Source: a bacterium (lineage in GTDB: Bacteria; Patescibacteriota; Minisyncoccia; UBA6257; GWB1-50-10). Taken from it: 64,000 nt of DNA. Below the pieces are notes generated by a model, which did not search any database, was not told the DNA's origin, and saw only the letters and a program-made list of their open reading frames with translations. This document shows positions 105 to 2,099 of this stretch, one piece after another; positions within the stretch are counted from its first letter, which is position 1; every line of letters begins with the position of its first letter. Both the position numbers and the translations under genes were made by a program. Location: NCBI GenBank assembly GCA_021801565.1, contig JAJYXV010000015.1:155198-219197 (forward strand), written 5' to 3'.

Positions 105-827
105 TTGCCCGCAAAAAAAACGGGAATAGTGATATTATTGATTCATATGAAAGTGTTGGTGTTTAATACATTAAAAAATTCAGGAGTTGAAGAGGTTTTA
201 AAAGAACACGGGTTTGAAATTGTTTCTTACAATCCCGATGTCGTTGTAAGTTACGGTGGGGATGGAACGCTTATGCGTGCAGAACACATGTATCCGGGAA
301 TTCCAAAACTTCCGCTTCGCGCAAGCGCAGTGTGCAAATTATGTTCACCGATTTCAAATGAAGAAGTGTTGAAGAAAATAGAGAAAAAAAAATATTCGAT
401 TGAAGAGTTTTGGAAATTGAATGTAGTTGCACGTGGGGAAACATACGTAGGAGTAAATGATGTGATTGTGCACAATAAAGATCCGCGCCACGCGATTCGC
501 TACGATGTGTCGGTGAATAATAAAAAAATTTTGGAAGGAGTGATTGGTGATGGGGTGGTAGTGGCAACGCCATTTGGTTCAACCGGATACTATCGTTCGA
601 TTACCGATAGTTACTTTGAAGTGGGGATGGGGCTTGCATTTAATAATAGTACTGAACAGTCGGATCATATTGTACTCAAAGAAAGTTCGATGATACGAAT
701 TACAATTGCACGTGGTCCTGCGATCGTGTATGTTGATAATCGAAAAGAAAGCATTGAATTAGATGAAGGAGAATTCGCTGAAATAAAAAAATCAGACCAG
801 GTGGCGAAAATAATAAGAGTTATTTAA
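105..827 (+). CDS. nadK: NAD kinase
   Basis: GGDGTLM motif and DGVVVATPFGSTGYY (NAD kinase signature). The true start may be the internal Met (MKVLVF..., ~147). Confidence 0.8.
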   Translation: MPAKKTGIVILLIHMKVLVFNTLKNSGVEEVLKEHGFEIVSYNPDVVVSYGGDGTLMRAEHMYPGIPKLPLRASAVCKLCSPISNEEVLKKIEKKKYSIEEFWKLNVVARGETYVGVNDVIVHNKDPRHAIRYDVSVNNKKILEGVIGDGVVVATPFGSTGYYRSITDSYFEVGMGLAFNNSTEQSDHIVLKESSMIRITIARGPAIVYVDNRKESIELDEGEFAEIKKSDQVAKIIRVI

Positions 828-842
828 TATAAAGTGTAGTTT

Positions 843-955
843 GGGCCTGTAGTTCAGTGTCCCGATTCATAACTTAATGCGTTAGAATCGCGGATCCTCG
901 AAAAATATATAAATTGAAGATTGATTATTTTTCGGGAGTATGACGCAACATTCGT
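843..955 (+). pseudogene. degenerate tRNA-like copy (5' GGGCCTGTAGTTCAGTG... plus GTATGACGCAACATTCG block), not foldable as a cloverleaf
   Basis: Shares the 5' acceptor/D-stem string and the GTATGACGCAACATTCG block with the intact tRNA-Ala at 1393. No complementary 3' acceptor strand. Confidence 0.3.
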
Positions 956-975
956 CCTGATTTTTAAATTTTGAA

Positions 976-1242
976 ATGTTTTACACATACATTTTAAGAT
1001 CAGAGTTAAACAACCCTTTTTATATTGGGAGTACAAATAATATTGAACAACGGTTATATTTTCATAATCATGGTCTGGTCAAATCGACAAAGAGATACAA
1101 ACCCTGGCAATTGATATATATTGAAGAATATAAGACACTAAAATTTGCTCGGAATAGGGAATTACAAATTAAGTCATGGAAAAGTAGAAAGTCGATTGAG
1201 TCAGTTATTTCAAAATTTGAAAAAATCGATGATCCTCGATGA
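976..1242 (+). CDS. GIY-YIG nuclease domain protein (88 aa)
   Basis: YILRS...FYIGSTNNIEQRLYFHNHG...R..E...K matches the GIY-YIG fold (UPF0213/YhbQ-like). It lies between the tRNA-like fragments. Confidence 0.6.
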   Translation: MFYTYILRSELNNPFYIGSTNNIEQRLYFHNHGLVKSTKRYKPWQLIYIEEYKTLKFARNRELQIKSWKSRKSIESVISKFEKIDDPR

Positions 1243-1249
1243 TTTTGGT

Positions 1250-1390
1250 GGGCCTATGGTTCAGTGGTAGAACGCGGTCCCGCCCATACTTCGTATCGCG
1301 GGATTGCGATTTGTGTATAAAAATCATAAAATTTTTATACAAATCGGGAACATTCGCACCGTGCCCCGTTTATAAATTTGTGGATCTGTG
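1250..1390 (+). pseudogene. degenerate tRNA-like copy (intact acceptor-5'/D-arm GGGCCTATGGTTCAGTGGTAGAAC, aberrant downstream hairpin)
   Basis: Canonical 5' half followed by the hairpin CCCGCCATAC-TTC-GTATCGCGGG instead of an anticodon arm. No T-arm or 3' acceptor. Confidence 0.3.
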
Positions 1391-1392
1391 AT

Positions 1393-1463
1393 GGGCCTAT
1401 GGTCTAGTGGTATGACGCAACATTCGCATTGTTGAAGCGGCAGTTCGATTCTGCCTAGGTCCA
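1393..1463 (+). tRNA. tRNA-Ala (anticodon CGC)
   Basis: Acceptor GGGCCTA/TAGGTCC with a G3:U70 wobble pair, anticodon stem CAACA/TGTTG, loop TTCGCAT, T-arm GGCAG-TTCGATT-CTGCC. Confidence 0.75.
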
Positions 1464-1473
1464 CAAAATATAT

Positions 1474-1785
1474 ATGTCAATTAATAAGGAAAATAAAAAT
1501 TCATCACACATACTGAATGCATCATCAAACTTGGTGGGATTTTCATTTATATTATTTACCACAATCAGGGCAATCGGCTTATCAAAAGACACACTACTTG
1601 ATGAAATTGCGGCGTTAGAGATTCTTTTGTTTTGTATAAGTAGTTTGTTTTCTTTTATGTCTATGCGCACAAATTCGGAACAGAGAGCAAATTTCTATGA
1701 AAACGTTGCCGATTTTATATTTTTTATCGGACTTGGTATTCTTTGTATTGTAGCGATACTCCTTACCCTTACCGTGATTAAGTAA
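1474..1785 (+). CDS. hypothetical small membrane protein
   Basis: ORF with 2-3 hydrophobic helices. No recognisable domain. Confidence 0.3.
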   Translation: MSINKENKNSSHILNASSNLVGFSFILFTTIRAIGLSKDTLLDEIAALEILLFCISSLFSFMSMRTNSEQRANFYENVADFIFFIGLGILCIVAILLTLTVIK

Positions 1786-1790
1786 TATTT

Positions 1791-2099
1791 ATGAAAAAAT
1801 CTAATTTCTATCTAAAAAGTTTTTTATGTGCACTCGGTACGTTGGTCTATATCGCATTGGTAGCGTTCCTCATGTTTAATGGAAAAAATGTTTTTGGAGA
1901 TGTTTCGAGTTTTATGATCCCTCTCTTTATGTTGCTCTTGTTTGTAATATCAGCATCAATAACCGGATTTTTGGTTTTTGGAAATCCGGTCCAACTTTAT
2001 TTAGACGGATACAAAAAAGAGGCATTTACATTTCTTTTTTCCACAATCTCGTGGCTCATTCTTTTTGCGGTGATGATTGTAGTTGGGTTTTTAATTTAG
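1791..2099 (+). CDS. hypothetical small membrane protein
   Basis: ORF with 3 hydrophobic helices, adjacent to the previous one. Confidence 0.3.
   Translation: MKKSNFYLKSFLCALGTLVYIALVAFLMFNGKNVFGDVSSFMIPLFMLLLFVISASITGFLVFGNPVQLYLDGYKKEAFTFLFSTISWLILFAVMIVVGFLI

Follow-up and report, generated by a model that had tools for sequence, protein, structure and literature searches.

Free-standing GIY-YIG nuclease genes at tRNA loci are known from T-even phages, where the Seg-type gene segB lies among tRNA genes and its product cuts inside them, promotes its own inheritance together with the adjacent tRNAs and leads to tandem tRNA-plus-nuclease repeats via breaks and short-homology recombination (PMC13096335, citing Brok-Volchanskaya 2008). 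A separate branch, the prokaryotic Slx1-like proteins, is of minimal size and without accessory domain (PMC1564403), and its UPF0213 (YhbQ) members are treated as cellular proteins of unknown role in the literature searched. Mobile genes may also bring part of their target with them: in the mobile ORF of Allomyces mitochondrial atp6, and in the flank gene conversion of free-standing endonucleases, the cassette carries a piece of the target. Rickettsia palindromic elements, mitochondrial double-hairpin elements and GC clusters are small palindromic mobile elements, for which no dedicated enzyme is known. Bacterial tRNA group I introns, for which a review is available (PMC3984707), sit in anticodon loops.

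The locus described here was found in a DNA stretch of 64,000 nt, referred to as the window, from a bacterium of the Patescibacteria (candidate phyla radiation, CPR). Its region 843–1475 is likely a tRNA-Ala(CGC) gene that was colonised more than once by a small selfish DNA element. The design of this element is probably undescribed as far as the open-access literature goes: no description of the architecture was found in the open-access literature searched, and an earlier report is not excluded. Nor was any report found there that links UPF0213/Slx1-like proteins to tRNA genes, hairpin termini or mobility.

Anatomy of the interrupted tRNA-Ala locus

The tRNA-Ala 5′-end pattern GGGCCTRTRGTYYAGTG has three matches in the 64 kb window, at 843, 1250 and 1393, against a mean of 0.38 matches in dinucleotide shuffles, with three matches reached in 0 of 100 shuffles. 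A preliminary description, made from sequence alone, had claimed that only the third of these copies is a tRNA. This held: ARAGORN called a tRNA-Ala(CGC) at 1393–1464 and no other tRNA at the locus, and the Rfam tRNA model scored 1393–1463 at 63.5 bits. No non-tRNA Rfam family exceeded its threshold in the region 700–1600. The same description had proposed a displaced block of the intact tRNA in copy 1, a perfect acceptor and D-arm followed by an aberrant hairpin in copy 2, and an 88-aa GIY-YIG ORF between the two, all of which were confirmed. The GTATGACGCAACATTCG block at 938–954 is identical to 1410–1426 of the intact tRNA; the acceptor strand and D-arm of copy 2 (1250–1277) are clean and are followed by a hairpin with a CUUCG loop (1278–1303); and the ORF (976–1242) is intact. 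The sequence of the locus did not differ by a single base among four independent assemblies, namely an NCBI metagenome-assembled genome and three separate sequencing runs assembled in Logan, and mis-assembly is therefore ruled out.

Two other readings of the tRNA-like sequences were rejected. A tmRNA or tRNA-like RNA, considered on account of the G3:U70 acceptor, found no support, with no tmRNA detected by ARAGORN. As to one long tRNA-like RNA, the minimum-free-energy fold of 1240–1470 pairs the copy 2 acceptor strand with the 3′ end of copy 3, which reflects shared sequence only.

Each base of 843–1475 was assigned to a part (Table 1).

Table 1. Parts of the interrupted tRNA-Ala locus, given in window positions
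Feature	Position	Strand	Sequence or remark
Displaced tRNA-Ala fragment 1, part a	843..859	+	GGGCCTGTAGTTCAGTG: acceptor 5′ strand, nt 8–9, D-stem 5′ strand, D-loop to G18
ORF-less hairpin unit U1 (TCCCGA...TCGCGGA)	860..894	+	In fragment 1 D-loop; −12.0 kcal/mol
ORF-less hairpin unit U2 (TCCTCGA...TCGGGA)	895..937	+	Row of covarying-arm alignment A4
Displaced tRNA-Ala fragment 1, part b	938..954	+	GTATGACGCAACATTCG; stops at element junction
Left arm, ORF-bearing unit	955..978	+	TCCTGATTTTTAAATTTTGAAATG; start codon included
GIY-YIG nuclease ORF, 88 aa, minimal Slx1/UPF0213 type	976..1242	+	Pfam PF01541
Right arm, ORF-bearing unit (...AAAAAATCGATGA)	1206..1232	+	Within ORF 3′ end
Second-unit left arm and leader	1233..1249	+	TCCTCGATGATTTTGGT
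Displaced tRNA-Ala fragment 2, part a	1250..1277	+	Acceptor 5′ strand, D-arm, nt 26, anticodon-stem nt 1–3
Hairpin unit U5 (TCCCGC...GCGGGA)	1278..1303	+	In fragment 2 anticodon stem; −10.5 kcal/mol
Hairpin unit U6 (TTGCGATTTG...CAAATCGGGA)	1304..1349	+	−12.7 kcal/mol
Displaced tRNA-Ala fragment 2, part b	1350..1363	+	ACATTCGCACCGTG; decayed anticodon-arm remnant, TTCGCA retained
Leader of intact tRNA	1364..1392	+	CCCCGTTTATAAATTTGTGGATCTGTGAT; pairs with tRNA 3′ end and trailer
Intact tRNA-Ala(CGC), G3:U70, working copy	1393..1463	+	ARAGORN; Rfam
Shortened trailer	1464..1475	+	CAAAATATATAT

Copy 1 is the 5′ half of a tRNA-Ala and stops exactly at anticodon nucleotide G35. Its part a ends at the same D-loop position in the related loci L015, L016 and L020, and its part b comprises the remaining D-loop, the D-stem 3′ strand, nt 26, the anticodon-stem 5′ strand and the loop to G35. 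The junction after 954 (...CATTCG/TCC, the slash marking the border here and below) is common to L005, L009, L015, L016, L018, L020, L026 and L034. Four ORF-less hairpin units are present, in the D-loop of copy 1, where U1 and U2 form a double-hairpin mini-element, and in the anticodon stem of copy 2, where U5 and U6 are both conserved in the relative L094. The "decayed copies" of the preliminary description are thereby refined: they are displaced 5′ portions of tRNA genes that were interrupted, and ORF-less hairpin units of the same element family have split them again. They are not products of random decay.

The two arms of the ORF-bearing unit are 94% complementary (−15.1 kcal/mol), and the pairing of a left arm that contains the start codon with a right arm recurs in 23 loci. 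Both arm cores deviate in the window, the left reading TCCTGA against the consensus TCCCGA and the right TCGATGA against TCGAGGA; the cores contain one mismatch and one wobble. In relatives, the left arm of the second unit and its partner arm surround a replacement tRNA, the slot of which is filled here by part a of fragment 2; the partner right arm (expected ...ATCGGGA) was not found in the window. The right end of the element and the 3′ half of the outer tRNA, both present in relatives, are likewise missing. The window copy may be immobile by now, with its arm cores off consensus and its right end lost, though the ORF is intact. Around the working tRNA, L094 keeps the full leader/trailer helix (CCCCG...ATAAATTTGTGG with CCACAAATTTAT...CGGGG). 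A promoter/terminator scan was uninformative (3 promoter-like sites, 4.1 expected). The rest of the 64 kb window held no further element copies, hairpin motifs or nuclease paralogues. The other tRNAs of the window (Thr, Thr and Trp) are clean.

The nuclease family, its insertion sites and its hairpins

The ORF product matched the Pfam GIY-YIG family (PF01541) with E = 6.9e-19 and 68.4 bits, the cutoff being 22.6 bits, and 117 homologues were found. The residues Y5, Y16, G18, R26, H30 and E62, conserved across 46 homologues, are all present in the window protein. A family profile matched two UPF0213 structures, PDB 1zg2 (BH0048; 1.4e-11) and 1ywl (EF2693; 4.2e-10), as well as SLX1 chains (1e-5 to 9e-4), and I-TevI at 8e-4 only. 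These matches place the protein in the minimal Slx1/UPF0213 (YhbQ-like) branch of GIY-YIG enzymes; it consists of a single domain of 88 aa without accessory DNA-binding domain. It looks active, judging from its intact GIY-YIG residues and its kinship to the UPF0213 structures and SLX1; cleavage activity is inferred. The conserved hairpin arms beside the gene are suggestive at most of structure-specific cleavage of branched or hairpin DNA. The protein does not fit the Seg/I-TevI type, as TIGR01453 (group I intron endonuclease) scored 21.5 bits against a cutoff of 56 bits and the two-domain layout of that type (nuclease, linker, DNA-binding domain) is absent. A PHROG homing endonuclease match was marginal (E = 1e-3, over 33 residues only), tblastn gave no match to the protein in 50,697 phage records, and no PADLOC defence-system match was obtained. 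In a neighbour-joining protein tree labelled by phylum and tRNA type, sequences grouped mostly by phylum and tRNA; resolution is weak for a protein of ~80 aa, and cross-phylum transfer is unproven.

For comparison, ~85 loci encoding relatives of the ORF were used, and tRNA adjacency was counted in 83 non-redundant loci from Patescibacteria, Chloroflexota, Acidobacteriota, Bacteroidota and other phyla. A same-strand tRNA was located within 150 nt of the ORF in 67 of the 83. The nearest homologues (63–68% identity) all lie 0–50 bp upstream of a tRNA-Ala gene, with differing neighbouring genes. At the orthologous locus of L093, identified by a neighbouring NAD kinase with 86% amino acid identity, an uninterrupted plain tRNA is the only feature, and it is identical to copy 3 of the window in 71 of 71 positions; at that of L094 (NAD kinase 93% identical) hairpins and one fragment are present without the ORF. 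Presence and absence of the ORF at the same chromosomal locus among close relatives is thereby shown. It had been stated beforehand that the insertion reading would fall if the ORF proved to be a YhbQ-type housekeeping gene found at unrelated loci. This applies in part, the protein being YhbQ/UPF0213-like by sequence, but the housekeeping portion failed, given that the ORF is tied to tRNA genes and that the nearest relatives do not have it at the orthologous locus.

The insertion junctions could be placed to the nucleotide. The left junction reads ...TTCG/TCCCGATTT in tRNA-Ala(CGC) or ...TTTG/TCCCGATT in tRNA-Ala(TGC) genes (14 loci, including the window), and the right junction TCGGGA/CAT.. 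or /CAA.. (11 loci). Comparison shows that insertion into tRNA-Ala genes takes place exactly between anticodon nucleotides 35 and 36, without target-site duplication. Insertion points fall in tRNA loops (anticodon loop at 35/36, D-loop and T-loop), no duplication was present at any junction examined, and the target resembles NG^CA. When the flanks were rejoined in silico, a tRNA with the same anticodon was detectable by ARAGORN in 7 of 12 loci, the other five being decayed. Replacement tRNAs keep the anticodon-arm sequence of the interrupted copy. Insertions with the same ends also occur outside tRNA genes, in duplicated 5′ fragments of atpG, tpiA and gatB, with the complete gene downstream of each fragment; for atpG and gatB, the target in this complete copy has been altered by synonymous substitutions. 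Phyla other than the CPR show another arrangement, with the intact tRNA upstream and a hairpin replacing the anticodon arm of the downstream copy; one mechanism may not cover every case. Near-identical copies at different sites of one genome were not seen, and recent movement is not shown.

The arms of unit 1, which encloses the ORF, follow the consensus TCCCGAT...ATCGAGGA or TCCCGAT...ATCG(A)GGA, and those of the second unit TCC(N)CGAT...ATCGGGA. The arm palindrome of the element is ATCGAGGATCCTCGAT. ORF-less mini units span 26–46 nt. In related loci, 41 units of the hairpin family were counted, against at most one in each of 20 shuffles. The ORF-unit arms, which pair across the whole ORF including its start codon, pair more stably with their partner from the same locus than with arms of other loci (−18.2 vs −10.4 kcal/mol, p = 6.5e-6); this comparison is the noisier one, as false right arms (AAATCGTGGAAA, coding for K-S-W-K inside the ORF) were retained for several loci. 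The covariation count was limited to units of the second type, which hold no such false pairs. Their arms are 96.6% paired, all seven variable pairs change on both sides, and the covariation score was 0.497 against 0.119 in shuffles, the observed value being reached in 0 of 500.

The proposed element and its rivals

The preliminary description had suggested, GIY-YIG enzymes being classic homing endonucleases, that the locus may be the footprint of repeated mobile-element insertion at the tRNA gene. This reading, with the nuclease as the driver, is supported by the recurrent architecture, the nucleotide-exact junctions and the ORF-less orthologous locus. The proposed element consists of two adjacent units with short inverted arms, of which the first holds the nuclease gene and the second, in tRNA-borne copies, encloses a complete replacement tRNA. 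Comparison of loci shows that displaced tRNA pieces remain and decay, while ORF-less derivatives of one or two hairpins build up in the dead pieces. By the same comparison, copy 1 is the 5′ half that was displaced first, its D-loop holding a double hairpin; copy 2 once served as the replacement tRNA until a further double hairpin inactivated it, and copy 3 is the tRNA that works at present.

The remaining steps are inferred. Target genes without the element would be cut by the nuclease at NG^CA, and the cassette would be copied in during repair. Survival within essential genes would be possible because an intact version of every broken gene is always either carried along or generated by the element. 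Transcription would probably start from the promoter of the displaced tRNA fragment, and arm pairing over the start codon probably holds nuclease expression low. The covarying arms would imply a folded single-stranded intermediate (ssDNA or RNA), which would fit the structure-specific Slx1 branch. No cleavage, excision or insertion was observed; the mode of insertion is not shown, and the target and role of the nuclease are inferred from the architecture alone. A hydrolytic GIY-YIG nuclease on its own cannot join DNA, so that precise, homology-free insertion needs host functions or an unknown step. The model leaves unexplained how the replacement tRNA, having the same anticodon arm, escapes cutting, and no tested model explains the origin of the duplicated target segment.

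A bolder reading, which we consider less likely than not, is that of a previously unrecognised class of mobile DNA in several phyla, made up of the hairpin-bounded units. It would be mobilised by a minimal Slx1-like GIY-YIG enzyme acting on folded single-stranded termini, would insert precisely and without duplication at NG^CA, be it in a tRNA loop or at the 5′ end of an essential gene, and would persist by means of an ever-present intact spare, in CPR a whole tRNA inside the second hairpin.

Four rival explanations were weighed. In the intron reading, which the preliminary description had left as an alternative, copies 1 and 2 are exons of a tRNA or tRNA-like RNA, the inserts with their bounding hairpins are excised from the transcript, either through ribozyme activity or by an endonuclease protein together with a ligase, and the ORF is an intron-borne homing endonuclease. 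In its favour, insertion is into tRNA loops, the exon ends are brought together by terminal arms that covary like RNA helices, and some outer halves are still perfect (L010, L018 and L026). Against it, neither a group I intron nor another ribozyme was found in the window (no match at E ≤ 10 in 700–1600) or, at gathering threshold, in 18 related loci, which gave tRNAs only. Mini units of 26–46 nt are far below the size of a group I core, and the 3′ exon is wholly missing in the window, where nothing after 954 could serve as one apart from the complete tRNA itself, and in L015. Outer halves are broken in 5 of the 12 loci, and each insertion is accompanied by an intact spare gene copy that would be superfluous with clean splicing. 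No bulge-helix-bulge, as expected of an archaeal-type protein-spliced intron, was seen at the junctions by inspection: ...TTCG/TCCCGA...TCGGGA/CAT... gives a helix with a symmetric internal loop and not two 3-nt bulges offset by 4 bp. We regard introns as very unlikely, and the alternative was not supported. The same grade is given to ordinary tRNA duplication and decay beside a housekeeping gene of YhbQ/UPF0213 type, with the hairpins as unrelated palindromes or terminators. Bacterial UPF0213/Slx1 members are indeed usually regarded as stand-alone cellular proteins (PMC1564403), and the 64 kb window holds no second copy of the ORF or the hairpins. However, many genomes with differing neighbours share the junction sequences and the succession of parts, the ORF is absent at the orthologous locus of the nearest relatives, tRNA adjacency is far above the ~1–2% expected (an estimate from tRNA density), and the hairpins share conserved cores and covarying stems.

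A domesticated module is better placed, though still unlikely. The tRNA fragments and hairpins would then be processing and expression signals for a nuclease that serves the host at tRNA genes or on tRNAs; RNase P/Z cleavage, for example, could punctuate the transcript and the hairpins regulate translation. The ORF is always on the same strand as the tRNA and probably on the same transcript, the arms sequester the start codon, and the family has great age and a wide distribution. There are moreover prokaryotic Slx1-like domains fused to a TrmH-type tRNA methyltransferase, from which the authors of that work suspected an involvement in RNA metabolism (PMC1564403). Presence and absence among close relatives, insertions within essential protein genes with duplicated fragments, and nested insertions with decaying targets speak against this rival, the last being hallmarks of a parasite and not of a host function. 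It concerns the role of the module and does not conflict with the anatomy of the element. Attachment-site scars of an integrase-mediated island or prophage once present at the tRNA-Ala gene are all but excluded. tRNA genes are classical integration sites at which partial tRNA repeats are left behind, but no integrase or recombinase is encoded in the interrupted locus or in the called genes beside it, the ~630 bp hold the nuclease as sole ORF, 5′ and not 3′ ends are repeated, the break lies at anticodon 35/36, and phage matches are lacking.

Should the selfish-element reading be true, minimal GIY-YIG proteins of a large clade, whose sole annotation is "GIY-YIG nuclease family protein", would have a biological role. 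It would also account for the strange incomplete tRNA copies and the hairpins that make tRNA annotation confusing in genomes of CPR bacteria and others. A "break it but bring a spare" strategy would allow a parasite to live within essential genes without any need for splicing, and the covarying terminal hairpins would point to a mobility mechanism outside the known transposase and intron classes. The very small enzyme, which apparently recognises defined sites or structures, is of potential interest for genome engineering. If the bolder reading were true, UPF0213/YhbQ-type proteins, which have long been without an assigned function, would have one for this clade at least, and the element would be the smallest known self-contained nuclease-based mobile element.

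Comparison with known systems

Some traits of a free-standing homing endonuclease gene are present: the ORF is not part of an intron or intein and sits inside the interrupted tRNA-Ala gene that is its presumed target, and it shows presence/absence polymorphism. Cleavage of the ORF-less allele, with the gene copied in by repair, is inferred, and the signs of a donor allele protected by target-site differences are mixed, with synonymous changes in the intact atpG and gatB copies but an unchanged anticodon arm in the replacement tRNAs. SegB resembles this locus in that a GIY-YIG gene is situated at tRNA genes. It is, however, a two-domain phage protein of I-TevI lineage, whereas a single-domain Slx1/UPF0213 protein of 88 aa is encoded here, as small and as free of accessory domains as its prokaryotic branch in general; and SegB loci have no conserved hairpin termini, fixed 35/36 insertion point or hairpin-enclosed tRNA. 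Group I introns in tRNA anticodon loops share the location and can carry GIY-YIG homing endonuclease genes, but the present element has no ribozyme core, does not maintain the host tRNA and is accompanied by a spare tRNA in place of splicing.

By analogy, the element has in common with target-carrying endonuclease cassettes that a replacement segment arrives and the resident segment is left as a pseudogene. It differs in that a whole tRNA inside a hairpin, or a complete essential gene downstream, takes the place of that segment, and in its defined inverted termini. Small palindromic elements are alike in their ORF-less units of one or two hairpins, their insertion in genes including RNA genes, and their nesting; here, in contrast, the autonomous copies have a nuclease gene of their own, and conservation of the termini extends across phyla. 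Hairpin ends, absence of target-site duplication, a short specific insertion sequence and covarying stems, pointing to a folded single strand, are shared with IS200/IS605. The HUH/Y1 TnpA transposase of that family is lacking, the sole ORF being a hydrolytic GIY-YIG enzyme, and the hairpins of this ~0.4 kb element are terminal, whereas those of IS200/IS605 are subterminal.

Anatomy of the window locus and its alleles

The window has three matches, and no more, to the motif GGGCCTRTRGTYYAGTG (copies 1 to 3, at 843, 1250 and 1393), against a mean of 0.38 in the shuffled window, with none of 100 shuffles reaching three. Only 1393–1463 was recognised as a tRNA, namely tRNA-Ala(CGC) by ARAGORN and with 63.5 bits by the Rfam tRNA model; copies 1 and 2 were recognised by neither. 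The preliminary description, which had reported three tRNA 5′ ends with the last alone a tRNA and a GIY-YIG ORF between the first two, thus held. The locus was found identical in the Patescibacteria (candidate phyla radiation, CPR) MAG GCA_027423585.1 and in three further assemblies, each built independently from its own sequencing run, which excludes an assembly artefact.

Features of the tRNA-Ala(CGC) locus (positions in the window)
Feature	Position	Remarks
tRNA-Ala fragment 1a	843–859	
Double hairpin inside the D-loop of fragment 1	860–894, 895–937	
Fragment 1b	938–954	stops at G35; identical to 1410–1426
Left arm of the ORF unit	955–978	core TCCTGA, 1 change vs consensus
GIY-YIG ORF	976–1242	88-aa GIY-YIG domain (Pfam 6.9e-19)
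Right arm of the ORF unit	1206–1232	core TCGATGA, 1 change vs consensus
Left arm of the second unit and leader	1233–1249	
Fragment 2a	1250–1277	occupies the spare-tRNA slot of relatives
Second double hairpin, inside the anticodon stem of fragment 2	1278–1303, 1304–1349	
Decayed remainder of the fragment 2 anticodon arm	1350–1363	
Leader of the working tRNA	1364–1392	
Working tRNA-Ala(CGC)	1393–1463	
Shortened trailer	1464–1475	

The ORF unit, bounded by inverted arms, is adjoined by a second arm-bounded unit, of which the right arm is missing here, as is the outer tRNA 3′ half. The locus is therefore the record of two or more successive interruptions, an intact copy having survived every time.

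The orthologous NAD kinase gene was found on two metagenome contigs, L093 (86% aa identity) and L094 (93% aa identity). On L093, a short double hairpin comes after the kinase gene, and then a plain tRNA-Ala(CGC) identical to copy 3 at 71 of 71 positions, with neither nuclease ORF nor tRNA fragments at the locus. The double hairpin (L093 3700–3760; TCCGCCAAAGGCGGA followed by TCCTCCTTTGGAGGA, central GGATCC) could be a divergent mini-element. L094 also lacks the nuclease ORF at this locus and carries a single hairpin-bearing 5′ fragment, the same mini unit (an ORF-less hairpin unit) as window 1278–1349, the same leader, a trailer and a decayed 3′ remnant. Its tRNA-Ala(CGC) (L094 755–826) differs from window 1393–1463 at 12 of the 71 aligned positions, most of them stem positions, with largely compensatory changes, while the hairpin and leader just upstream differ at a mere handful of positions, which suggests that the tRNA allele was swapped via recombination. 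Presence and absence among the three alleles follow the pattern expected of a mobile cassette, and the direct repeats of the tRNA 5′ end also offer an obvious route to loss of the ORF.

To the right, the 103-aa ORF (1474–1785) and the beginning of the small membrane ORF that comes next, both within window 1474–1874, have no counterpart in L094 830–940, where decayed tRNA 3′ remnants with hairpin insertions are found instead; this side of the locus has been remodelled.

A tRNA gene split between nucleotides 35 and 36

Homologues of the nuclease numbered 117 at E ≤ 1e-3, nearly all of 76–92 aa. The genes of the four closest each lie 0–27 bp upstream of a same-strand tRNA-Ala (4/4 contigs), amid protein genes that differ from contig to contig. 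Relatives share a fixed order: a tRNA-Ala 5′ half ending ...CATTCG, i.e. at anticodon nucleotide 35; TCCCGATTT..., the ORF and ...AAATCGAGGA; TCCNCGA with a leader, a complete tRNA-Ala, a leader-complementary trailer and ...TCGGGA; and finally CAT... with the tRNA 3′ half (3′ strand of the anticodon stem, T-arm, 3′ strand of the acceptor). The outer halves of three loci (L010, L018, L026) rejoin as a perfect tRNA-Ala(CGC), and of 12 loci joined in silico, seven gave an ARAGORN tRNA of the same anticodon and five had decayed. No target-site duplication is present. Given the fixed order and the rejoinable outer halves, the structure is a tRNA gene broken open between nucleotides 35 and 36, and the inserted element brings a tRNA of its own.

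Distribution, targets and hairpin units

When one genome per species was scanned with the family profile, 532 relatives were found, the best 80 of which belong to Patescibacteria, Chloroflexota, Acidobacteriota, Bacteroidota, Ignavibacteria, Armatimonadota and some Proteobacteria. A same-strand tRNA lies within 150 nt of the ORF in 67 of 83 non-redundant loci; from tRNA density, we estimate that a few per cent at most would be expected to have one. In CPR loci, the tRNA (Ala-CGC, Ala-TGC, Glu, Ile, Lys, Asp or Thr) immediately follows the ORF, with the left junction (slash) ...TT[CT]G/T[CT]CCGAT in 14 tRNA-Ala loci, the window included, and the right junction TCGGGA/CA[TA] in 11. Outside the CPR, the intact tRNA stands 10–60 nt upstream of the ORF and a 5′-truncated copy of it downstream, in which the hairpin TCCCGAT-N4-6-ATCGGGA takes the place of the anticodon arm and leads directly into variable loop and T-arm (junction TCGGGA/AGGT...GGTT, at least 15 loci).

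In a Gracilibacteria MAG (L060 1440–1960), an intact tRNA-fMet is preceded by three tandem 5′ parts of it, their anticodon arms swapped for TCCCGATTAAAATCGGGA; the start of the nuclease ORF lies within a T-loop remnant. In L017 (1287–2054), the ORF lies between two intact tRNA-Ile(GAT) genes, with near-identical pseudo-tRNA 5′ pieces bearing the same double hairpin at 1376–1470 and 1863–1957, an arrangement resembling a segmental duplication of the entire cassette. Downstream of tRNA-Pro(CGG) in L005 (2830–2990; also L007 and L008), a second tRNA-Pro 3′ fragment has a T-loop with the GC-rich hairpin CCCTGCCCGCC...GGCAGGCGGG; another tRNA may thus bear similar scars without a neighbouring nuclease gene.

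Elements with the same ends also occur in protein-coding regions, where the second unit is a plain hairpin. They interrupt duplicated 5′ fragments of atpG (L021 1400–1900), tpiA (L050 1410–1900) and gatB (L028 1420–1900), each followed after 12–21 nt by the complete gene (Pfam ATP-synt 1e-79, TIM 9e-68 and GatB_N 1.5e-106, respectively). Intact atpG and gatB carry synonymous changes at the insertion point, AAAG^CAATGG of the atpG fragment reading GAAGGCCATGG in the intact copy. In L046, a small Cys-rich ORF is interrupted and its frame runs on across the junction. Target sites have NG^CA in common, several resembling the tRNA-Ala(UGC) loop TTG^CAAT. The general order, to which the window conforms, is a displaced 5′ piece of an essential gene, the element and the intact gene.

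Units are bounded by TCC(N)CGA...TCG(N)GGA, and 41 with at least three further base pairs were found in related loci, against at most one per shuffle (20 shuffles). The arms of the ORF unit pair over about 20 bp, start codon included, and vary among 23 loci yet remain complementary, with a duplex energy of −18.2 kcal/mol within a locus vs −10.4 across loci (p = 6.5e-6). The second unit was aligned from 18 cases (10 enclosing a tRNA, two from non-tRNA elements and six minis, among them window 895–937): 96.6% of cells were paired, 7 of 7 variable pairs changed on both sides, and the covariation score was 0.497 vs 0.119 in shuffles (0/500 reached the observed value), while shifting the partner by one column lowered pairing to 44–61%. 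Since units were selected on the first three extension pairs only, the outer four are unbiased; they were paired in 17, 17, 17 and 12 of 18 rows. With conserved cores and covarying stems, a fold of the single strand (DNA or RNA), beyond a mere protein-binding sequence, is under selection. The sites at which ORF-less units were seen, as single or double hairpins, are one and the same D-loop position of the displaced 5′ half (window, L015, L016, L020), T-loops (L009, L016, L019, L036) and the interior of other units (L010, L047, L051).

In L016, L019, L020, L034 and L047, the conserved K-S-W-K motif of the nuclease is coded by AAATCGTGGAAA, a mimic of the right-arm core AAATCGNGGA that gave false arm pairs in the automatic arm search; the window codons (1171–1182, AAGTCATGGAAA) show no mimicry. 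The likeness may or may not be coincidental.

Proposed mechanism and known systems

Anatomy, conserved junctions, covarying arms, polymorphism and the constant intact copy of the interrupted gene are shown. By inference, the nuclease would break element-free genes at NG^CA (cleavage was not observed), and repair off an element-bearing template would bring in the cassette with the adjoining intact gene segment; with homology on one side alone, joining on the opposite side would take place at the element terminus, leaving a precise junction and a displaced fragment. Transcription would start at the promoter of the displaced fragment and pass through the ORF into the working tRNA, to be freed by RNase P and RNase Z, and arm pairing across the start codon would limit nuclease synthesis. 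Recognition of folded termini by the nuclease is suggested by its structure-specific enzyme ancestry and the selected hairpins. The scheme does not account for the escape of the spare tRNA from cutting, its entry into the second hairpin or the joining of DNA ends, and confidence in any particular insertion chemistry is far below that in the anatomy and the selfish-element reading.

All conserved GIY-YIG residues are intact in the window protein. With the family profile, two UPF0213 structures (1zg2, 1ywl) and the SLX1 nuclease domain are matched, and I-TevI far more weakly; the nuclease scored below threshold with the group I intron endonuclease model and had no match in phage genomes or among defence-system models. 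For Dunin-Horkawicz et al. (PMC1564403), prokaryotic Slx1-like proteins represent the domain in its minimal, stand-alone form, and a fusion to a TrmH-type tRNA methyltransferase hints at a connection with RNA metabolism; linkage to tRNA genes goes unmentioned by them.

A group I tRNA intron does not fit, for want of intact exons and of a ribozyme in the searches of window 700–1600 and of 18 related loci. The main interpretation of the preliminary description, repeated mobile-element insertion at the tRNA gene, is supported by the architecture of the relatives and by the alleles. The locus is likely a site of nested insertion, used by a small selfish GIY-YIG element that brings along, or keeps intact, a spare copy of its target. 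IS200/IS605-like elements share hairpin ends and the lack of a duplication but differ in their enzyme. The ORF-less units are reminiscent of the palindromic mini-elements of Rickettsia and mitochondria, for which no enzyme is known.

No prior description of the architecture was found in the open-access literature searched (full text). In function, phage SegB comes closest: this free-standing GIY-YIG endonuclease cuts inside tRNA genes and drives tandem tRNA+segB repeats via break-induced recombination (PMC13096335); the window nuclease falls outside the SegB family by size, domain structure and sequence alike. The element probably sits among free-standing homing-type nuclease elements, as a variant not yet described in the literature searched, and its hairpin-bounded design may even represent a new class of mobile element.
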